From the NCBI RefSeq assembly GCF_964213995.1, contig NC_135812.1:28334001-28398000 (forward strand): a stretch of DNA of 64,000 bases, given 5' to 3'. The translations under genes and the position numbers were made by a program. The notes beneath the pieces are model-generated. The model ran no database searches. It was given only the letters and a program-made list of their open reading frames with translations, and was not told the origin of the DNA. Positions 3,885 through 61,300 of the stretch are shown here, piece by piece. Numbering within the stretch: position 1 is the stretch's first letter; each line of letters starts with the position of its first letter. This DNA comes from Mustelus asterias. Its lineage: Eukaryota.

Positions 3885-6800
3885 GTCTGTTTTAACACTG
3901 CATTTCTATACCTGACACATACAAAATGAGTCTCTTGTAGTTCTGTCCTGCAATATTTCTCCACCTTTTCCTTCTCCTTTAGGGATCACTGGAAAGACTA
4001 ATGTGTATATTGAACAACACCACACCTCACTACATCAGATGCATCAAACCTAACATGGACTGCAAACCACTCCTTTTCAAATCAGAAGAGGTACTGTCAT
4101 AGAATAAGAAAAATTGCTCAAGTTGATGAGGTTATAAGCAATAAACTAGTTTTGGCTATTCAAATTATGCTGATAAAAATTGATTTAGATTGGTAATGTT
4201 AACGTGTCTCCTTTCAGAGGCTGTAAAATAGTGTTTTGGTTGAAAAATGTTCTAGTTAGCTTTACCTTTTTAGGTACATTATTTCAGTTAGTGCTGGCAG
4301 TTTAAACAATTGTTTTAGTCTACAGTTTCAAAATATCATTGTTAAATGGAGTTTTATTTTTGGAAGCTTCAGGTATTGTGTAATCACCTTCAGCAAAGTG
4401 GTATTTCAGAGTGTAAAATGTTTAATTTCTGCAACTAAATTATTTCCCAACATTTTGAATCGATGCTTTGGCTGTATACAATTTTACTGCAGAAGCACCA
4501 TGCTTTTGTCCACTAAAGCTAACCAGAAAGAAATTTACCTCAAACGTTTGAGAGTACTTAAGCTTTTTTTCACAAAGTAATCTGTTTGCTTTAGATTCTC
4601 AGCCAACTAGAAGCTTGTGGTATAGTTGAAACAATCAACATCAGTGCAGCTGGATTCCCTATTAGGTACGTTAGACGATTACCATGTTAGCTTTTTCAAA
4701 TGGTAAAAACTCATGGCTCCTTGTGTGCCATGTATTAATTACCTGAGTGGAATAAAGGAACTTGAGCTCATAGATCTTGACGTATGCCTAAAACTTAATG
4801 GAACATTATGTATAATAATTATGGCCTATTTGTTCCTTATGGGCTATGAATAACTAATTGTGGAAAGCACACACTAAAGAAGCTACAAATCAGTCAGAGA
4901 ATACTGATTGACTTGATGGATGGTTCCTTTGGGGAAGATATAGCAGTGTGAAATTTGCATTCCATTTGACTTGGATTAAAAACTGACTGTTTTGATTTGA
5001 CTTATTATTGTCACGTATTATCATACAGTGAAAAGTATTGTTTCTTGCGCACTATACGGACAAAACATACTGTTCATAGAGAAGGAAACGAGAGAGTGCA
5101 GAATGTAGTGTTACAGTTATAGCTAGGGTGTTGAGAAAGACCAACTTAATGCGAGGTCTGACAGCAGCATAGAAGAAGCTGTTCTTGAGTCGGTTGGTAC
5201 ATGACTCAGACTTCTGTATTTTTTTTCCTGAAGGAAGAAGCTGGAAGAGAGAATGTCTGGGGTGCATGGGGTCCTTAATTATGCTGGCTGCTTTGCCGAG
5301 GCAGCGGGAAGTGTAGATAGAGTCCATGGATGGGAGGCTGGTTTGTGTGATGGATTGGGCTACACTCATGACCTTTTGTAGATCCTTGCGGTCTTGGGCA
5401 GAGCAGGAGCTCTGCTCTGCATTATAAGTTATGCTTCATAAACTACATTTTTGTTCACATATGGTGACTAACAGTACTTTGCAATTTAGGGTCCCATACC
5501 AGCATTTTCTGGAGCGCTACGGACTTCTGAGAACGTATTGGCAACTGGATTTAAAAACTGCAGCTAGGTTTAATGGATGCTCTCCTGCCAAAAAGAGGAA
5601 AAGTTAGTCATATTTATTCTGTTGGTAATTTTAAGAGAAACGTTTATAACATAAACTTTGTGTAAACTCAGTGAAATATTCACAGTTTTAGTACTGGATT
5701 GATAACCTTATTTAGAGTAAAATAACTTTTTTAATATACTGGTTAAGTTTAATGTTGCATTTTTATAATTGGTACTATATTAAATTCATCCTCTTAATTT
5801 TCTCTCCTTTTTCCTTTGTTGTTTTTTTCTCTGTCTTTCTCCTTCCAGTTTCTGTCGATTTGAGTTCACCAATTCCTACATTTTCTGTCTGCTGCCTTCA
5901 ACTTGCTAATTGCCTCGACTTTGTTATGGTATCTCTGCCTTCTCACATCTGCCTATACTGAAGATGCTGTTGCCATGGAAATGGATATCGTTTGCCTTTG
6001 CAGGTTCATCATCAGCAGATGGCAGCACTGAGGCTTTGCAGTTCACTGCACGGGACATTCTCACGAATGTACTAGCTGGCCAAAATGTCACATCATCCTG
6101 TAAGCCAGCTGAGAACAGGTCATGTAACTCATTGGTACATTGTGGCAAAACAAAAGTGTTCATGACTCATAGTATGGTAAGTTGCCTAAATTATCTTGAA
6201 AAATTCTCTTTCCGGTTATGGATCTGATTTTTCATTTAGAAAAGGAGTAGGCTATTCAAACCCCCCAAACCATTCAAAGCATGCAAAACAGCCATGATCT
6301 CAAACTCCATCCACCTGCCCTGGTCTCATATGACTTCAGTAAGAAGTTTCACAACACCAGGTTAAAGTCCAACAGGTTTATTTGGTAGCAAATACCATAA
6401 GCTTTCGGAGCACTGCTCCTTCGTCAGATGGAGTGGAAATTTCCACATCGAGATTTCCACTCCATCTGACGAAGGAGCAGTGCTCCGAAAGCTTATGGTA
6501 TTTGCTACCAAATAAACCTGTTGGACTTTAACCTGGTGTTGTGAGACTTCTCACTGTGTTCACCCCAGTCCAACGCCGGCATCTCCACATCATGACTCAT
6601 ATGACTTAACATCCTTGGCTAACAAAAGTCTATCAATCTCAACCTTAGAATGATTAACTGAGCTAGTGTCTATTGGTTCTTGTGGAAGAGAATTACACAC
6701 TTATACCTGTTTTCTAACCTCTTTTGTGAATGCCCTGGCTCGAATTTTAAGATGACATCCTCTTCATAGAATCATACAATCTACAGTGCAGAAAGAGGCC

Positions 6801-9800
6801 ATCGTGCCTGCACCGACAACAATCCTATTGAGGTCCCACCGGGTTTCTTCCGGGTGCTCCAGTTTCCTCCCACGGTCCAAAGATGTGCGGGTTAGGTTGA
6901 TTGGCCACGATAAATTGTCCCTTAATATCGGGGGGGGGGGGAAGGTGTTTAGGAGGGCAAATATGTGTGGTTACAGGGACAGGACCTGGGTGGGATTGTT
7001 GTTGGTGCAGGCACGATGGGCCAATTGTTGTCGGTGCAGACACGGGGAGAATGTGCAAACTCTACACGTACAGTCACCTGAGGCTGGAATTGAATGCGGG
7101 TCCCTAGCACTGTGAGACAGCAGTGCTAACCACTGTGCCATTGTGCTGCCCCTATGTCTAAGGGGCTTGTCAAAGTCTATGTCTTGTCTAAGACATGCCC
7201 ACCAGCAGAAGAAATTTGTAAATTTCTTTGAGAATCCAAAAAACATAAAATTAAAAAAATTACAAGGATACATTGATACATTAAGCAAAAGGGGTAAAAC
7301 TGTGGCAGATGGATTTCAACATCGGCAAGTGTGAGACCATCCATGTTGTACCATAAAATAGTAGATCAAGTATTTATTTTTAATGGTATGAAGACATCCA
7401 TAGTGAAGGCCCAAAAGAGATTTAGGGGTCAACGTTTCTCAATCAAATCATCCCTTAGTCTTTTTTATTCCAGGAAGTGCAAGGCATTATGTCATCTCTC
7501 CTTGCAATCTAACCGTAGAACCCTGGTACCCTTCTGGCCAAATTATGCTGCATTGTTCCTAAAGCCAATGTAACATTTCTAAGGTGCATAACCCAAAACT
7601 GTATATAATACTCTAGATATGGCATAAGAAGGGCTTTGTATAGTTGTAACAATACCTCTTGCCCTTCATATTCTAGCTCTCTAGCAATGTATGTTCGCGC
7701 TTTTGATGTTTGGTTATACCTGACCCCTAAATCTCTTTGGACTTTCACTATGGCTTTACACCATTTAAAATAAATACTAAGTTTACACCATTTAAAAAAA
7801 TACTTGATCTGTATTTTATGGTGTAACATGGATGGTCTCACACTTGCCTATGTTGAAATCCATCTGCCACAGTTTTGCCCATTCACTTAAAGTATCAATG
7901 TATCTTTATAATTTTTAAATTTCATGCTTGCTTCATTCAAGAGATGTGGACTTCACTGGCTAGGCCAGCATTTATTGCCTATCCCTAATTCCCCTTGAGA
8001 AGGTGGTGGTGACCTGCCTTCTTGAGCCACTACAGTCCATGTAGAGTAGGTATATCCATAGTGCTGTTCAGAAAGGAATTCCAGGATTTTTACTCGGCGA
8101 CAGTGAAGGAATGGTAATATATTTCCAAGTCAGGATGGTGAGTGGCTTGGAGGGACACTTGCAGGTGGTGGTGTTCCCATGCACCTGCTGTCCTTGTCCT
8201 TCAAGATGTGGGTTTGGAAGATGATGTCTAAGGAGCCTTGGTGAGTTCCTGCTGTACTTCTTGTAGATGGTACACGCTGTGCCACTGTGCATTTGTGGTG
8301 GAGGGGGTGAATGTGCCAGTCAAGTGGGCTGCTTTGTCCTGGATGGTGTCAAGCTTCTTGAGTGTTGTTGGAGCTACATTCATCCAGACAAGTGGAGAGT
8401 ATTCCATCACACTCTTGTCTATTCTTCCACCAACTTTGTGTCATTGGCAAACTTGGGAATATGGCTTTCTATTTAACTCATTACTAAGTATAATGAAATA
8501 GTTGGGGCAGCACAGTGGTTAGCACTGCTCCCTCACAGCGCAGGGGCCTGGTTTCGATTCCCAGCTTGGGTCACTGTCTGTGCGGAGTTTGCACATTCGC
8601 CCCGTGTCTGCGTGGGTTTCCTCCGGGTGCTCCGGTTTCCTCCCACAGTCCGAAAGACGTGTTGGTTAGGTACATTGGCCATGCTAAATTCACCCTCAAT
8701 GTACTCAAACAGGTGCCTGAGTGTGGCGACTAGAGGATTTTCACAGTAACTTTATTGCAGTGTTAATGTAAGCCTACTTCTGACACTAATAATTAAATTT
8801 TAAACCATGCAGGTAAATGATTTGCCTTCAATTTCATGAGCTTTAATTTTTAGCTGATTATCTTTTTATTTGAAACTTTATCCAACATCTTTAAGTCCAT
8901 ATAAACCACATTCACAGACATTCCTTTGCCTCCTACTTTTGAAGTGTAGTCATTATTGCAAAGCAGATTATGAAAGGATGCAAATATTTTAAAGGGTCAG
9001 TAAATGTTTACATTATTAAATCCCTTTTAGCTCGAGTTGCTTGAAAGTGCAAGGAGTCAAACACTTTCCAAGAAAGCACTTTGTATTCAATGTAGTTGGA
9101 GAAGATATCGTCGGAGAAAATTAGCACGATTGAGGCGAGCAGCAACTATCATTCAAGCAGGCAAGTGTTACACCCTCTCAGGTCATCTTCTAAGGGATCT
9201 TCGTGTTGAAATGAAACACAATTCACTCCAGGGATTAGTGTTTGCCTCAAGCATTCCTATCACAGGTTTATCAGGAAATCTCCCTCTGCTGTCTAACAAG
9301 TTGCCTGAACTCAGCCTTGGAAGCATTGAATTATTGTGACATTAGTTATTTTTCTCAGTTCCTCATTAACTTTTGGAATTTCCCAGTTAGCTTTAAATTA
9401 GGAAAATAACGCAAGTGTTTTAGTGCCACAAAGAGCTGAATTGATGATCCCTTTGCATACAACATTGGGCCCAAATTTGCAACCTAAATCCAAGAGAATA
9501 TTGGAACAGTTACAGGCCATTAAGCACCTCATGCCTGTTCCACTATTCAGTAGATCAGAGATGACCTGTACTTCAACTCCATTTATCTGCCTTTGATCCA
9601 GACTCCTTGATTTCCCTTTATCTAATGAAAATAGGTCTACGTTGAAAATTTAAGTTGAAGCAGCAATCGCAACCTTTTTGGAGAGTGAGTTCCATATTTC
9701 CATTACTGGTGATCGAGAGTAGACTGATGGGGTGGTAATTAGTTGGGTTGGATTTGTTCTGTTTGTTGTGTACAGGACATACCTAGGCAATTTTCCACAT

Positions 9801-23200: not shown

Positions 23201-26200
23201 GATTATGTACTTCGCAGAAGAGCATTGCACAGTTTGAGACCCAAGCAAAAAAAAAGTGCAATTCAAGTATCATCAGAATAATGGAAGCTGAAGAGGTTAT
23301 ATTTGCACTAGCTGATAACAAAAGTAATGTCTTGCGTTGGCTGCATTTTGCAAGTGCCATATATTTGCATTAGCTTGATGTGACGACAGTAAAACTCATT
23401 AATCTGAACTCCCCATGTTTGTGCCCACACAAAATTGGGAGTCCAAAACAGTTTGCAAAATTGTTGTAGCATCTGAACTCAAAGACAATTATAGCCTTGT
23501 AGATATTTCTCTTTGAGCCATCGTGGTAAAAGTTATACTTTACCGTTGCCATTTTGCTGTATTTCCTTCAAAGATGGATACGGTTCTGAAATTGTTGAAA
23601 CGGAATCAGTCGCCCGTGGTTTACAATCATCTAGTAAAACACAGCAATGATTATAGTTATTTTACAGAAAGTTCACACAAAAAAATCAGTTAAGAACACA
23701 GACTGGTCAGAAACTTCAAGATTCCATACTACACAACTATAGCTATAATTTAGACAGTGGAAAAGCCAAGCTTTCAATCTCAGTTGTGCAGGTGGGAGAT
23801 AGGGTGGTATATCCAAAGGCAGATTTTAATTTGGCCTTGCAATTCATTGCCCATGGAAATTGCAAGCCCTACCTCACAAATGAAGGGAAATACGATACCT
23901 CTGTCTCACTTTGTTCTGATCTTAAACAAAGAATGTTTAAAGGATGAAAGGTGAAAGAAAGCTTTCCATTCACTACCTTGTTTTAACAATGCAGGCCATG
24001 GATAACAATTATCCTGGCACCTGCATTTCTGAAATTCCAGCCTGTAGACCTCCAATCCAATAGTTATTGCACATCATTCCTCCATCAAAGGAAAATTAAT
24101 TTCGAGCATTACAATCTACTCTTCAAACACAACGTGGGTTTAAAGCTTCCTTTGGAAATTTGGATATTTCTCTACAACCAATCAACTTAATTTCAGCTAG
24201 AATAAAACGAGCAAAACTGTTATTCATATTCAACAACTTTAATGCGCCACTAAGAACTATCCATACCTTTGTGTTTCTTGTAACATCCTACAGAGCAACT
24301 GAAAATAAACAAAACCAGAATTATAATTAAGTTGACAAAATACTTAAAATGTTACTAAGAGTATCACCAACATTCACTTTAAAAATTTAGCTGCTGGGTA
24401 CATTTCCAGTGCACTGTTCTTCATTTTAAAAAAAGAGACTAGGCACAAGGCTTGCATGGTAACCTTTTGACTGAGCAGCCACATAACTTGGCAGGAACAT
24501 TGGATATTACATGACAAGGTGTCAAAATTCAAGGCCATGTGATTAAAGGGACAGTGGCAATCACCAATTTTAAAAATGACCGAGGGACAGAAAGCACAAC
24601 TGTATTGGGCTCTGGTTGCTTATGGAATGCTCTCCTTAATTGGAGAGGTATAGAATACAAAAGGATATAATGTTGGAATTCTATCAAACACTGGTGAGGC
24701 CACAACTAGAGTATTCCATGCAGTTCTGGTCACCATATTACAGGAAGGACATAATTGCTTTGGAGAGTGTGCAGAGGAGGTTAACAAGAGTGTTGCAAGG
24801 GCTAAAAAAAAGTGTAGCTATGAGGAGAGATTGGATAGGTTGGGGTTCTTTTTCTTGGAACAAAGAAAGCTGAGGTAAAAGCAAATTACTGCAGGTGCTG
24901 GAATCTGAAACCAAAAGAAAAAGTGCAGAAAAATCTCAGCAGGCCTGGCAGCATCTGTAGGGAGAGAAAAGAGCTGATGTTTCGAGTCCAGCTGACCCTT
25001 TGTCAAAGCTAAAAGGCATAGAAAGTGGGAGATATTTATATTGCAGGGGAAGGGAATAAAAGATGAGTCATAGTCATAGAAACCAGGGCGAAAAAACTGC
25101 TAATAGCTGTCCAGAGAGAGAATAAAGGGTGTGAATGGCCAGACAGCAGAGAAGCTGTAAGCTGTGACACATGGGGATTCGGGGAGGGGGAGTAGACAGG
25201 GGTAGACAGTAGAAAAGGTAACGGGGGTGGGGGGGGCCTGAAGGAAAGGGGGTGGGGGGGGGCCCGAAGGAAAGGGGGTGGGAGGGGGGCCCGAAGGAAA
25301 GGGGGTGGGGCCCGAAGGAAAGGGGGTGGGGGGGGGGGCCCGAAGGAAAGGGGGTGGGGGGGGGGCCCGAAGGAAAGGGGGTGGGGGGGGGGGGCCCGAA
25401 GGAAAGGGGGGGGGGGGGCCCGAAGGAAAGGGGGGGGGGGGGCCGAAGGAAAGGGGGTGGGGGGGCCCGAAGGAAATAGGGGGGTGGGTGCCGAAGGAAA
25501 GGGGGTGGGGGGGCCCGAAGGAAAGTGGGGGGGCCCGAAGGAAAAAGGGAGGGACCCGAAGGAAAAATGAAGAAAGACCAGAAAGAAATAAAAGGTAGAG
25601 AACAGAAAAATTAAAATAGAATGAAAATAAAGGGGGCCGAGGTGGGGAAGAGCAAATCATCTGAAGTTGTTGAATTCGATGTTGAGGCCGGCGGATGAGA
25701 TGCTGTTCCTCCAGTTTGTGTTGAGCTTCACTAGAACAATGCAGCAAGTCAAGGACAAATTGTGGGCATGGGAGCAGGATTAAAAGCAGTGTTAAAATGG
25801 CAAGCAACCGGAAGGTCAGGGTCCTGATTGTGCACAGACCGAAGGTGCTCAGCAAAGCGATCACCCAGTCTACGCTTGGTCTCTCCGATATAGAGGAGAC
25901 CACATTGGGAGCAGCGAATACAATTCACCAAATTGGAAGAGGTGCGAGTGAAACACTGCTTAACCTGGAATGAGTGTTTTGGATCTTGGATGGTGGGCAT
26001 AGAAGAGGTAAAGGGACAGGTGTTACACCTTCTGCAATTGCATGGGGAGGTGGCATGAATGACAGGAGGTGTTGGAGGAGTGGACTAGGTTATCCCGGAG
26101 GGAACGGTTTCTGTGGAGTGCTGACAGAGAGAGTGATGGGAAGATGTGTTTGGGGGTGGCATCACGCTGGAGTTGGCGAAAATGGCAGAGGATTATGCTT

Positions 26201-28171
26201 TGCACGCGGAGGCTGGCGGGGTGAAATGTGAGAACAAGGGGGACTCTATCCTTGCTCTGGGAGAGGGGGGAGGGGTGAGGGCCGTGACGCGGAAGAAGGA
26301 CTGCACGCTGTTGAGGGTCCTGTCGATAACTGTAGATGGGAATCCACGGTTGAGGAAAAAGGAGCACATATTAGAAGCACCACTTTGGAAATTGGCATCA
26401 TCGGAACAAATCTGACGGAGACAAAGGAGCTGAGAAAAAGGGATGGAGTCCTTACAGGATGTGGGGTGTGAAGAGCTGTAGTCCGGACAGCTGTGGGAAT
26501 CAGTGGGCTTTTAATGGATATTGGTAGATAGCCTATTGCCAGAAATGCAGACAGAAAGGTCAAGGAAGGGAAGTGTTTGAGATGGACCAGGTGAAGGCGA
26601 TGGAGGGGTGGAAACTGGATGCAAAGTTGATGAATTTTGAGAGATCTGGACGAGAGCATGAAGCGGCACCAAAATAGTCATTGATGTACTGGTAAAGGAG
26701 TTGTCCCGGTCCCCTCCCACAAAGAAAGCTGAGGGGTGACTTGATAGAGCTGTACAAAATTATGAGGGCAAGGATAGAGTTGATAGGATAACACTGTTTC
26801 CCTTGGTGGCGAATTCTAGAACCAGGGGACATAGATTCAAAATAAGTGGCAGTAGGGGACATGATTAAGAACTTTCTTTATGGAAAGGGTGGTGGGTATC
26901 TGGAATTCATTGCTTGAATTGGTGGTGGAGGCAGAGAACCGAAACTCTTTTAAAAAGTACCTACTTCTGCACCTTAAGTGCTGTAAGCTACAGGGCTATG
27001 GGCCAGTGCAGCAAGATGGGATTAGAATGGGCACCCGAGTGTCCTCAGGCTGGCAGGGCAAGATGGACCAAATGGCCACCGTGTGTTCGAACTTTTCTAT
27101 GATTGTTCCTCAGACCAGAGAGAAGTAACCAGTGGCTAGTGTTGGGAGCTCTACACTCGATCAATATATGTTGATTACTTGGACTTGGGTATACAGGGCA
27201 TAAAGTCAGACTGTACAAAACTCAAATGGGATGGCGCAGTGGTTAGCACTGCTGCCTCAGTGCCAGGGATCCAGGTTCAATTCCCAGCTTGTGTCACTGT
27301 CTGTATGGAGTCTGCATGTTCTCCGTGTCTGCGTGGGTTTCCTCCGGGTGCTCTGATTTCCTCCCACAGTCCAGAAGGCGTGCTGGTTAGGCACATTGGC
27401 CATGCTAAATTCTCCCTCAATGTACCCGAACAAGCACTGGAGTGTGGCGACAAGGGGATTTTCACAGTAACTTCATTGCAGTGTTAATGTAATCCTACTT
27501 GTGACAATAATAAACTTCAATTTAATTATTCAATAGGGAGAAGAATAGTAACAGACTTCAGGAGGTCATAAACAGCCAAGCGAATGAATTAGAACAAACT
27601 TTATAAGTGTAGAAGGTTCAATTAACCATAAACACCACAGAAAGAAGGTTATTAGCAAAAGGTACCAAGGATTTTTACAAAAAGGTGCACCAATTTATAA
27701 TGATCTGTCTGAAAGGCTGCTGGGAACAGACTGATTAGAAACTTTCCAAAGGGGAGTGATGAATATTTACCCCAGCTGCAGAATGTGCTCCAGTAATTGG
27801 ACTCAACCCAGCGCTGGGGCTCAGAGTGAGACACTGACTGACACCTGGGTCAGTAACTCGGCTCTTCAACCGGGAGGGTCTCACAGCGGAGCCAGGCCCC
27901 GGCCAGAGCCCCCCGCGGCCCCGGCCAGAGCCCCCCCCCCCCTCCTCCCTCCTTCCCCCGCCACGATCCAGGTCAGGCGGGCGGGTTGGAAGCGGGGCCC
28001 GGTTACCAGGCCCGAGCTCCCGTCTCTGTGAGCAGCGGGCCTAAGCTGGGCCGGTGCGGCCGCGGATTCGAGTTGTAACCGATTGGGGCCGGGTTGTACT
28101 CACTAGCGCAGCTCACAGCGCGGACACCGGTATTTGGGCGGCTGCTCCCCGCACACGCGGCACATCCTCAT
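20073..28171 (-). CDS. ZNHIT3: Zinc finger HIT domain protein 3 (box C/D snoRNP assembly factor), 153 aa; complement join(28171-28104,24298-24267,23630-23544,22867-22787,20266-20073)
   Basis: Exons of 68+32+87+81+194 = 462 bp form one frame: [33 protein letters not shown] (zf-HIT) ... DEESDRVPLEKLRLLAESNELKNLLCNPHLKQLL ... MQEPIFVEFADQCLQIVEP. All introns are GT-AG. Confidence 0.97.
20595..22282 (+). mobile_element. CR1 LINE 3' part (same family as 16340-19195), interrupted by a SINE
   Basis: RT ORFs 20582..21313 and 21685..22227; 3' end matches 16340-16400 in reverse. Confidence 0.95.
21309..21645 (-). mobile_element. HE1-like SINE nested in CR1 (TSD GCATAT)
   Basis: Full head, core and tail; GCATAT at 21303-21308 and 21676-21681. 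Confidence 0.92.
22787..22867 (-). CDS. ZNHIT3: ZNHIT3 exon 4 (HHSTDDIFDDDDEESDRVPLEKLRLL)
   Basis: aacag|GA ... G|gtatgc; acidic stretch followed by DRV motif. Confidence 0.93.
23544..23630 (-). CDS. ZNHIT3: ZNHIT3 exon 3 (DCKPRATDSV...QQNGN)
   Basis: ttactag|AT ... G|gtaaag; phase 1-1; 87 bp open. Confidence 0.85.
24267..24298 (-). CDS. ZNHIT3: ZNHIT3 exon 2 ([10 protein letters not shown])
   Basis: 32 bp, ttttcag|T ... G|gtatgg. Confidence 0.93.
24972..25010 (-). ncRNA. Minimal hammerhead motif, U3-A8 core variant
   Basis: AGCU-UUGACAA-A-GGGUC agcug GACUC-GAAA-CA-UC-AGCU at the 3' end of the Penelope element. Confidence 0.65.
25225..25565. repeat. G-rich minisatellite (GGGGGGCCCGAAGGAAAGGGGGT)n inside the Penelope 3' region
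   Basis: About a dozen units with variable G-run length. Confidence 0.9.
27228..27520 (+). mobile_element. V-SINE, alternative tail
   Basis: As 8505-8803. Confidence 0.85.
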
Positions 28172-48977: not shown

Positions 48978-49113
48978 TAAAGGCAAAAAACTGTGGATGC
49001 TGGAATCTGAAACAAAAACAGAAAATGCTGGGTAATCTCAGCAGGTCTGATAACGTCTGTGGAGAGAGGACAGAGCTAATGTTTCGAGTCTGGATGATTC
49101 TTCGTCAGAGCTG
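48978..49113 (-). mobile_element. Penelope 3'-terminal fragment
   Basis: Same GCTGGAATCTGAAAC...AAATGCTG...ATCTCAGCAGG terminus as 24876-25010. Confidence 0.75.
49074..49112 (-). ncRNA. Minimal hammerhead motif with an intact core
   Basis: AGCU-CUGACGA-A-GAAUC aucca GACUC-GAAA-CA-UU-AGCU; one mismatch in stem II. Confidence 0.65.
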
Positions 49114-49428: not shown

Positions 49429-49546
49429 TCATGATGTGGAGATGCCGGCGTTGGACTGGGGTAAACACAGTAAGAAGTTTAACAACACCAGGTTAAAGTC
49501 CAACTAATAAACCTGTTGGACTTTAACCTGGTGTAGTTAAACTTCT
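49429..49546 (-). mobile_element. Short palindromic Penelope-derived element (family of 6337-6595) with a 13-bp TSD and no ribozyme
   Basis: TSD TGCTGAAATGTAG at 49416-49428 and 49547-49559; short inverted arms. Confidence 0.8.
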
Positions 49547-49582
49547 TGCTGAAATGTAGCCTGGGTTGCTTCCAATGCGTTT

Positions 49583-58373: not shown

Positions 58374-61300
58374 GTAAGTCTCCAGTTAAAGGTGACGTTT
58401 AAATTCATTAAATTTGCTCCAGTTTCCTTTGCAGTCTTGTTTCATTGTAAAAAAGCGGGATAAAGCCGCCTTGAACTGTTTCGAATGATTTCTGCTACTG
58501 ATCTGTCGCGCAGAAGCGACTGCTAAGCAGGGGGACTGAGACTGGGTTTAATATTGCACTGCAGGAACTCAGCAAAGTTCCTTAGCACCTTCCAAACCCC
58601 GGACCATCTACCAGGACAAGATGTGGAGATGCTGGCGTTGAACTGGGATGGGCACAGTAAGAAGTCTCACAACACCAGGTTAAAGTCTGACAGGTTTATT
58701 TAGTATCACGAGCTTTTGGAGCGCTGCTCCTTCCTCAGGTGAGTGGAGAGTTGGGTTCACAAACACGACATATATAGACAGTCACAATTGCAAGATAATA
58801 CCTGTAAAGACTTGCAATTGTGTCCCTGTGACCGATTTCTGGATTGGGTCACTGTCTGTGTGGAGTTTGCATGTTCTTCCCGTGTCTGCGTGGGTTTCCT
58901 CTGATGCTCCAGTTTCCTCCCACATTCTGAAAGACGTGCTGGTTACAATGAAACAAGATTGCATTGACCCGAACAGGTGCCGGAGTGTGGCGACTAGGGG
59001 AATTTCACAGTAACTTGATTGCAATGTTAATGTAAGCTTACTTGTGACTAATAAATAAACTTTTTTTACTTTTAGAGGTTCCTGCTCAGGCTCAGCCAGA
59101 ACCTGCAGAAGGCAGTGACAAATCTTATCAGTACCTTGCCAAGCATAACCATGGGCCAACATGTATTTGTCAATGCCCTCTCAGGTCGTGGTACCTGAAG
59201 AGAGAGAGCGCATATTGACATACTTTGTGTGATTCTCTGCTCCCTCCCCACACTCCCCATGGCATGTTTCTTGGTGGTGGGAGATAGCCCACCGTTGGCT
59301 GGCAGCAGGATTTTCTGGTCCCACCGTTGTCACTGTCAATGGGACTTCCCATTGAGTCCACCCCATAGCCATTGATTTTAATCTATTACTAATGGATCTT
59401 CAGTGAAGTTACTCCTGATAAGTCACATGGCATTGCCTCTTATCAAGAGTGCTACAACATAATGTGCAAAGCATTATTCCATTGGTAATATGCAGCAATA
59501 TCTTTTTAAGGAACACAACCGGGATTTCTGTGTAACAACGGGCTCTGGACCTTTCAGAATTGTTTTTTGGTCAGCTGGCTTCAAATTATAAATAAAATCA
59601 GAAAAGGTTGCAAATACTTGGTAGTTGTGGCAGCATCTATGGAGAGAGAAACAGAGGGCAGGTCTTTCCAGCCCCACTGCAGCATATTTTCCAGTGGTGG
59701 AGGCAGCATGCCATTGCCTGCTGGAGAGACCTTATGGTCTCGCCGATATGTACACCGTTTTATGTGGTTTGCTTATCCCACCGCCGGGGAACCTGCCACC
59801 TGGGGGGTCACCTTCGATGGGACCAGAAGATCTCACTGAAAGGCCTATCCAGAGTTACCATGTCAGGTTGATGTCCTTTCCCAAGCACCAATAGTATTTT
59901 GCTTTCAACTTGAAATTAGTATGTGCTCATCTGTTTGATACCGCAATTCACACGCTTACAATTTTACATGAACAACAAGGTAGCAAACCTACAACATGAT
60001 ATCTGTGCACATTACTGTTCCATTTTAATGCACTTTGAGTATTCAGTCAATTCTTTGTACGAATTTAACACTACACTTTGTATGAACACTACAAGCGTCA
60101 TGTTCGTGGGAAGTGGTTCAAAAAAATGCTAAATGCCACATGTGCACATCTAGGATATAACACTGAGATCCTCAGTTGTGCCTGACCTAACAAGGTACAA
60201 ACAACCAGCATTTATGATCAAATAGAATTTGTTAAGCAAGACGTTATTTATGCATTACAAAAATGCAGCAAATTCAGCGTGGAAGTTTCGTACCCTGCAA
60301 GGCCCTAGGATTCCTTGAAAGCTGCCAATGCAGGCAATGCTTCTCTTCAGTTTCTGAAGTTAATGTCCAACTGTGTCACAGAAGAATTGCACCACAGGAG
60401 TGTTGGTAAAATTGTGCCAACGAAGACTGAGTTTTCAACTTTTATCCCTAATTTTGACTGTCTCATTCCTATTAGGAAATAACCCCTACCATTGGCTACC
60501 CATGAGGGTCAACTGAGGTCACCCCACCTCGGTAATTAGTCATGTAAGGCTGAGGCAAATGTCCATCTCCTATTTCCTTTAGGCCCTAGAGTTTAATTCC
60601 AGTGTGAACAAATGATGCATCCTTTGTAGACACAAAGTGGTTGTACAACCAATCTTGCACCCTCTTCTCAATAATACAATAATACAAATTATTGTAAAAC
60701 CATTTATATGCTAACCTATTCCTATGGATGGGGAGGAAATTAAGAACATATGTTATTAATTCCTAGTATAATATCAGGAAATAACTACAAGTGTTCTGCT
60801 CTACAGATATGGTTAATCGATTAAGGCATTAGCAAACCCAAGTCTAATTCAAAGATGTGATGGTTCTTGTTTAGTGATGAGGTGTCGTACTAAGTTCAAG
60901 CCACTGAATTCAAACTGTTCGCACATTTCTCTGAAGCTGAAATAGATGCGTTGAATTGCACACAGTATAATTGAAACAAATTTGGTGGCTGTTTTGAACC
61001 AGGTAAACAGACACCCAGACAGCTGCTCTGATTGTTTTCCACCTTCTAACTGTTTAATGGCCAAACCCAGCAGACAGAAATTGAAACTGGACTACTTAAT
61101 GCCTAAGGCCGAATCCTAAAACATTACCTCAAACCAATATTGAATTCTAACGTTTGTAGTATTCTCAAAACCTGAATTGATTCTTGCCAGAAGTGAAGTG
61201 AAGGGAGTCGCACACAGCATCACCCAAGAGTTAAATTAACCTGAACTCTGAATTTATATTATACATTCTTAGCCATGATCCAAAATGAAACTGCTTGGCA

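Follow-up and report, generated by a model that had tools for sequence, protein, structure and literature searches.

A palindromic insertion with two hammerhead motifs in a shark MYO19 intron: a probable short, twin-primed insertion of a Penelope-like element

How did a 259-bp insert that is almost entirely one hairpin, with a hammerhead ribozyme motif in each arm, come to lie in an intron of MYO19 in the shark Mustelus asterias, and does it belong to a ribozyme-bearing family of its own? The window, meaning the whole 64,000-nucleotide stretch analysed here (NC_135812.1, positions 28,334,001 to 28,398,000), is numbered from its first letter. An earlier note on this sequence had described the insert, and its coordinates were recomputed and all hold: the 12-bp target-site duplication (TSD) on both sides, the two 104-bp arms with their 12-nt spacer, and the same 37-nt hammerhead string once on each strand (Table 1). 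The arms differ at two mismatch pairs (6341/6552 and 6348/6545). The hairpin scores −207.9 kcal/mol (z = −29.6; 0 of 200 shuffles were equally stable), and its RNA form closes to a 6-nt loop. The locus is one inverted pair, with no tandem array. Beyond the right arm the insert continues as an unpaired 3′ extension, which the earlier note had passed over and which is the diagnostic Penelope 'tail'. The centre junction shares an 11-nt near-repeat with positions 6581-6591 and looks like filler templated by nearby element sequence.

Table 1. Features of the insert and its host intron, in window positions.
Feature	Position	Strand	Remarks
Host MYO19 intron	6177-9030	+	Likely GT donor (6177) and AG acceptor (last base 9030)
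Insert	6337-6595		259 bp
TSD, left copy	6325-6336		CTCATATGACTT, 12 bp
TSD, right copy	6596-6607		CTCATATGACTT; first 2 nt also match the element template (microhomology)
Tailless arm	6337-6440	−	The element's pLTR end, inverted; outer boundary on the proximal (inner) RT start site
Hammerhead, left arm	6395-6431	−	Minimal type I motif
Centre junction	6441-6452		Unique to the locus (1 exact match in the genome)
Tail-bearing arm	6453-6556	+	Sense copy of the pLTR end
Hammerhead, right arm	6462-6498	+	Minimal type I motif; predicted cut after 6494
Element's AATAAA	6511-6516	+ (MYO19 sense)	Inside the hairpin stem; candidate signal by sequence
Unpaired 39-nt tail	6557-6595	+	Runs to the ATG that opens the ORF (6592-6594); marks the distal (outer) RT start site

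The insert does lie inside MYO19. An exon at 3744-3926 matches shark myosin-XIX proteins (six of six matches so named), and tblastn placed further exons at 6006-~6176 and 9031-9162 on the plus strand. The boundaries of the host intron were set by protein alignment together with the GT/AG dinucleotides, rather than by transcripts, and the insert begins ~160 nt past the likely donor. The same intron holds a 38-nt inverted repeat (6799-6836 and 6982-7019; 87% complementary).

The motif itself has the make-up of a minimal type I hammerhead: a core of CUGANGA and GAAA, stems I and II, an NUH triplet and a palindromic 15.2-16.2 pair in place of a longer stem III. The identification made earlier stands, and variants elsewhere in the genome agree with it. 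The core was invariant across 16 recurring variants except at N7 and H17, and H17 was G in 0 of 272 copies. All 128 stem cells of these variants were paired, 10 of them after changes on both sides, and 0 of 500 shuffles paired as well; only two pairs covaried, a level that 244 of 500 shuffles reached, and the sequences are related. Stem I switches from U-A to C-G between subfamilies, and the 3′ UTRs of two subfamilies are 81% identical. An exact search with the 36-nt ribozyme core returned 4,446 matches in the genome, and its reversed control returned 0. Stem pairing across variants thus favours conservation of a putative ribozyme in a way that is supportive rather than strong. A search with Rfam covariance models, which the earlier note had suggested, returned no hammerhead at E ≤ 5 for the insert and none at E ≤ 10 for a single arm. 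Rfam microRNA matches to the insert were set aside as generic hairpin matches that fell under the gathering scores.

Minimal hammerheads of this kind were reported in the Neptune and Poseidon Penelope-like elements (PLEs) of fish by Cervera and de la Pena (2014, PMC4209133), where they are likewise type I without a stem III beyond the palindromic 15.2-16.2 pair. As in that account, as far as its available text goes, the shark motif has an extra base between 9 and 10.1, a G10.1-C11.1 pair and a short stem I; the word 'shark' is absent from the main text of that paper. The published ribozymes failed to cleave in monomeric form, and their dimers did so weakly (PMC4209133). Here, unlike in those elements, two copies face outward in one hairpin, so that a tandem dimer is impossible.

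The arms were traced to a parent element, which bears out the Penelope origin that had been suggested. Each arm is identified by its sequence as the ribozyme-bearing end (pLTR) of an autonomous PLE. The tailless arm is identical at 102 of 104 nt to the pLTR of an ORF-linked copy (L158), and the right arm with its tail and the 2 nt of microhomology matches the same copy at 142 of 145 nt, stopping at the ATG of the ORF. Upstream of the ribozyme, most copies, which are non-palindromic, continue into a 3′ UTR and then into sequence coding for reverse transcriptase (RT) and a GIY-YIG endonuclease; the tail continues into the ORF's start in 328 copies. The ORF was checked at 50 loci: at one (L160) it is intact, with 883 aa, and at three it remained open up to the edge of the DNA examined. 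L160 has the order pLTR-ORF-pLTR plus tail, and the end of our insert corresponds to the start of that ORF. Its 883-aa product gave a Pfam RVT_1 match (E 4e-10) and carries the motifs DKG (288), YIDD (524), VVY (782) and YIG (797), with two cysteines between. Pfam called no GIY-YIG domain on the protein itself; some homologues carry PF01541. A CX4CxxC linker lies at residue 745. The Neptune and Nematis clades are described as having a CX2-5CxxC motif before the endonuclease (PMC8557442, in the text available), and by this linker motif alone, rather than by an RT tree, the shark ORF would fit that description.

The element also has the other properties of canonical endonuclease-bearing (EN+) PLEs: a single ORF with RT plus a GIY-YIG endonuclease at the C terminus, pLTRs arising from partial tandems (L160; tandem units of 2,991 bp), 5′-truncated copies arranged as inverted pairs, and a 30-40-nt tail at one end only (39 nt here; one-sided in 155 of 173 pairs). 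At one locus (L141, G000:C4:69468500-69478400), full-length units lie head to tail with a period of 2,991 bp, and the units read are frameshifted. At two others (L058 and L061), the insertion targeted the element's own sequence just upstream of the ribozyme. In four contig sets from four organisms or samples, the depth of the ribozyme-to-tail stretch (L158 540-675) was ~100x that of the ORF; judging from contigs, short stumps appear to dominate in other genomes too.

Related sequences occur elsewhere in the window. A second palindromic insertion (49429-49551), from another subfamily of the same element, has short arms, a one-sided tail and a 12-bp TSD, with no ribozyme. An older, diverged copy (58617-58755, minus strand; ~82% identical) consists of one arm with a variant ribozyme and a tail. 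A further CUGANGA...GAAA motif with another stem II (~49076-49108, minus strand) is perhaps the minimal hammerhead of an unrelated element, and a distant RT-coding stretch (25794-26579, minus strand) has 27% identity to the element's PLE protein over 280 aa.

The copies in the genome were used to ask whether the 259-bp hairpin is itself a unit of transposition. The earlier note had suggested that it may represent a non-autonomous, ribozyme-bearing family, taken here as one transcribed and copied as a unit, perhaps through its ribozymes, and had proposed looking for copies with identical ends and individual TSDs. A search with the insert gave 1,472 candidates, and all 40 that were scored matched nearly end to end (92-100%) with separate flanks; TSDs were present in 28 of the 30 best matches. 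Two centres recurred, in 8 and 5 of these 30, and an arm-asymmetric variant occurred in 3 of them (L001, L016, L018), as copying of the unit would predict; the 30 had been chosen for their likeness to the query, and junctions can also recur by microhomology. The centre of this locus, in contrast, has a single exact match in the genome, its own. Palindromes centred just upstream of the ribozyme numbered at least 1,545, and in the first 50 listed, 43 centres were singletons by eye, with the remaining seven falling on two perfect palindromic centres. A further 4,531 palindromes of the same build, the window's own at 49429-49551 among them, were centred near or beyond the cut site, too far downstream for two whole ribozymes, and a 34-mer just downstream of the ribozyme core had 140,369 exact matches. 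Head-to-head pairs span ~30 bp to 3.9 kb, a continuum that reaches up to near-full-length elements. The same build recurs in every subfamily, also without ribozymes, the fixed outer ends are accounted for by RT start sites (below), the ribozymes are predicted not to fold within the hairpin, and there is no tandem array. We therefore regard a family copied as a unit as highly improbable; rare re-mobilised units may exist. The locus is ordinary in this respect, one of thousands of stumps.

The preferred reading, to which we give a probability of roughly 0.7, is that the insert is a short, non-coding insertion of the autonomous PLE, made by twin priming at two start sites with end-joining of the two cDNAs. 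A 12-bp staggered cut would let each target strand prime reverse transcription, and we infer that in vivo each strand would take one of two start sites ~37 nt apart on the RNA. Both cDNAs would usually stop at the same 5′ end of uncut RNA from one source; here the stop would lie just upstream of the ribozyme, perhaps at the transcription start, and a near-perfect palindrome would result once the two ends were joined by microhomology-type repair. The identity of the arms, the TSD, the one-sided tail, the unique centre and the parent ORF are read directly from the sequence, and the shared stopping point of the two cDNAs is the part that we infer. Since both arms span the cut site, the template RNA at this locus would have been uncut.

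The evidence from the outer ends came from 173 head-to-head pairs, a set that excludes the 30 best matches to the insert. One tail-bearing and one tailless arm made up 155 of them, where about half would be expected (p 1e-28), and the outer ends fell into two clusters ~37 nt apart. Short-arm ends across the family cluster where the tailless arm of our insert has its outer end. By eye, the other 18 pairs comprised nine that also combine the two arm types but are obscured by indels or by short ends of somewhat greater length, five with an arm running into the ORF and four lacking a tail on either side. A TSD could be assigned in 170 pairs, with a mode of 12-13 bp and often 1-4 nt of template overlap at either end. 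The samples consist of the first loci on two or three contigs, and symmetric palindromes were selected for in several of the searches. The 76 tail arms comprised 49 with a TSD call, one tandem and 26 for which the DNA examined held no TSD; the start of a partner cDNA was found automatically in 40 of the 49 and by eye in two more, one TSD was false, and six (6/48) had no second arm. Of 98 tailless arms, 58 had a TSD call, with a tail-side start in 48 and none in 10 (10/58). The lone arms of both types, together with the four tailless pairs among the 173, mean that twin priming was not obligatory or was not always retained.

A long arm may face a stub of only 7-15 nt, and the stub may be of either type (L160; L064, L182, L220). 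Sixty pairs were taken without regard to symmetry: the tail arm was the one extending further in, by more than 10 nt, in 14 of them, and the tailless arm in 13, with some extents underestimated at alignment breaks and no rows dropped. Folding back of a single cDNA cannot account for both directions of inequality. The biochemistry of an anole Poseidon protein agrees with two starts: in vitro, both strands were cut and extended, and two RT start sites on the RNA bounded the tail, with uncut RNA as template (Frangieh et al. 2024, PMC11167929). Against the model, that study saw no difference between the strands in where RT started; a rule of one site per strand was not examined there.

Self-priming on an antisense RNA has been proposed for the same architecture in rotifers: priming at palindromes would give the inverted copy, and the endonuclease would trim one end and leave the tail (PMC3846280, PMC8557442, as far as their available text goes). 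Such a process explains the head-to-head polarity and the palindromic centres. It predicts neither the stubs of either type nor the 14:13 split in arm length, however; centres lie at many non-palindromic positions and contain filler, and the two ends of the tail have since been mapped as RT start sites on sense RNA (PMC11167929). We hold it to be very unlikely at this locus.

The arms and their inner ends point to one source for the two cDNAs of a pair. Both arms were of the same subfamily in 158 of 160 classifiable pairs. In 72 pairs, the arms differed at 2.4 of 91 nt within a pair and at 5.3 between pairs; rare variants were shared 32 times against 1.3 expected, with 116 unshared, and later gene conversion could also have produced the shared ones. 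Inner ends were correlated (rho 0.83), and 33 of 60 pairs ended within 10 nt of each other against 8.6 when shuffled (maximum 18). The centres had overlaps mostly of 1-5 nt, or inserted filler. The simplest reading of these sequences is that both cDNAs would have run off the same RNA 5′ end and then been end-joined.

Correlated inner ends also fit a snap-back, in which both target ends are primed, one cDNA folds on and copies itself, and the product anneals to the short cDNA of the other end. This alternative would explain the strength of the correlation and the rare variants common to both arms, and the many centres with short fillers could be its loops. Loop-free centres on self-complementary dinucleotides are nevertheless common (three and four of the first 50 listed), and 13 loop-free pairs were counted by eye among the first 100 rows of the per-arm listing. 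Those centred on AT or GC recur and need two separate ends; at least these cases are impossible by folding one strand on the known template. Many pairs are also very unequal, in both directions. Snap-back is accordingly judged unlikely, and we retain end-joining of two separately primed cDNAs.

Where the inner ends fall may also bear on the 5′ ends of the template RNA. Among 112 unbiased arms, the interval 31-60 nt upstream of the cut held 30 junctions, against 13 for the 30 nt that follow it downstream; this broad cluster, into which our locus falls, may mark transcription starts. Nearer the cut, 95 palindromes (two sets of 50, duplicates removed) were compared. The further-reaching arm ended at 0/−1 in 34 of them and over −2 to −9 in 25, and the excess occurred in three different cut-site sequences. 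The observed share at 0/−1 was 0.57-0.58, against 0.11-0.45 in simulated nulls (microhomology or random filler; main subfamilies); under the highest null, the focal subfamily gave p 0.002 in one set and 0.07 in the other. Junctions with inserted bases divided 13 vs. 16. Genome-wide counts per arm had no spike, with 238 at the cut, 247 two bases upstream and 51 two bases downstream. The patterns behind these counts differ in stringency (about 0.28, 0.42 and 0.28), and indel variants, as well as palindromes ending at the cut, contaminate both upstream classes. By eye, 97 arms with near-cut junctions were broadly spread, and flat in the ATGG subfamilies, and only ~4 true junctions of the 112 unbiased arms lay at 0 to +4. 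A modest enrichment at the predicted cut is thus suggestive only as a trace of cutting, and an RT that stalled on the folded core would leave an identical pattern.

A broader proposal follows the same lines and is offered tentatively, at somewhat less than even odds: the centres could be a fossil map of template RNA 5′ ends, laid down by a dimeric complex using two sites, with some templates already cut by the hammerhead and the cDNAs stopping at the scissile bond. If true, it would provide genomic evidence of germline cutting by a vertebrate minimal hammerhead, and one mechanism would yield the tail, the inverted repeats and the TSD together.

For the insert itself, folding predictions agree with the idea put forward earlier that its ribozyme is locked off. 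For stems I and II, the predicted pairing probability was 0.94-1.0 in the isolated motif and 0.39-0.54 in one arm plus tail, and it fell to 0.0 once the whole insert was folded, whichever strand was taken. Lock-off is sound as a prediction because the antisense arm is transcribed first on both strands, and the ribozyme at this locus is predicted to be base-paired to its own antisense copy and inert. The stem III duplex of the dimeric fold gave, by itself, −4.3 kcal/mol (ViennaRNA). The ribozyme would work, if at all, for the parent element.

The insert's place in MYO19 raises the possibility that this copy was retained to regulate the gene or as a source of small RNAs. The earlier note had also proposed the hairpin as a candidate substrate for ADAR or Dicer. 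Its nearness to the splice donor, the dsRNA of more than 100 bp that would form, and the AATAAA and acceptor-like stretch on the MYO19 sense strand speak for it, and inverted Penelope copies gave siRNAs in transgenic Drosophila (PMC3681739, in the text available), which makes dsRNA processing plausible for this class of insertion. The insert is young, however, being 98% identical to an ORF-linked copy; it is one among thousands and bears no mark of selection. Retention is the least probable of the readings considered, and the locus is likely without a function of its own. On the plus strand, 6498-6568 has a GT close behind the ribozyme cut, a CTCAC resembling a branch point, and a stretch of pyrimidines leading up to CAG. 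Judged from these signals, it could serve the element as an intron of 71 nt within its 5′ UTR, or act as a cryptic MYO19-sense acceptor. No matching joint was present in the four contig sets, which are uninformative on splicing.

The locus is mainly useful as a record of a likely mode of PLE insertion. Young, very abundant and with an intact ORF, the family is suited to testing the origin of the inverted repeat and the one-sided tail, and to asking whether minimal hammerheads cut in vivo; the rule of one site per end is a sharp prediction for an existing in vitro assay. Thousands of near-perfect hairpins, some of them intronic, could place a large dsRNA load on shark transcriptomes. In annotation, such stumps could be mistaken for MITEs, microRNA hairpins or retrozymes. 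A literature set with few subscription papers and without Repbase yielded nothing on the shark family itself, nothing that traces PLE palindromes to priming at one site per strand, and nothing about junctions that coincide with a hammerhead cut.

The architecture is already described for PLEs, with other mechanisms proposed. As far as the accessible text of those accounts goes, canonical EN+ PLE insertions (Arkhipova et al. 2013, PMC3846280; Craig et al. 2021, PMC8557442) have the same head-to-head inverted 5′-truncated copy, 30-40-nt tail at one end, TSD, palindromic inverted junction and pLTR hammerhead, and the inverted structure is explained there by antisense self-priming or by endonuclease resolution. 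The shark unit differs in being cut down to two pLTR stumps that lack any ORF, and it is present thousands of times. Poseidon PAc of Anolis carolinensis (PMC11167929) shares a pair of neighbouring internal RT start sites flanking the tail, cutting and extension of both strands, the uncut ribozyme RNA as template and a predicted dimer. Its distal start site lies 111-118 nt into the ORF, whereas that of the shark element is at the ATG, and it lacks the CX4CxxC linker of the shark ORF. One site per end, seen in the shark genomic pairs, is not reported in the available text of PMC11167929, a study that also found none of its reads at the site where the ribozyme would cut.

Metazoan non-LTR retrozymes (Cervera and de la Pena 2020, PMC7229834) are likewise small, non-coding and hammerhead-bearing, and are probably served by PLE enzymes. 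According to the available text, their monomers of 150-450 bp carry canonical type I ribozymes and are repeated head to tail, whereas the insert combines two inverted copies, each with a minimal ribozyme, and has a TSD. We rejected the classification of the insert as a retrozyme, as it is a single inverted pair and not head-to-tail monomers. In LINE-1 twin priming, both target strands prime and two different parts of one RNA are copied, which results in an inversion, and both this process and polymerase-theta end-joining leave junctions with microhomology or templated filler. The shark element would likewise be primed from two strands, with the difference that the same part is copied twice from two fixed sites, which gives a palindrome.
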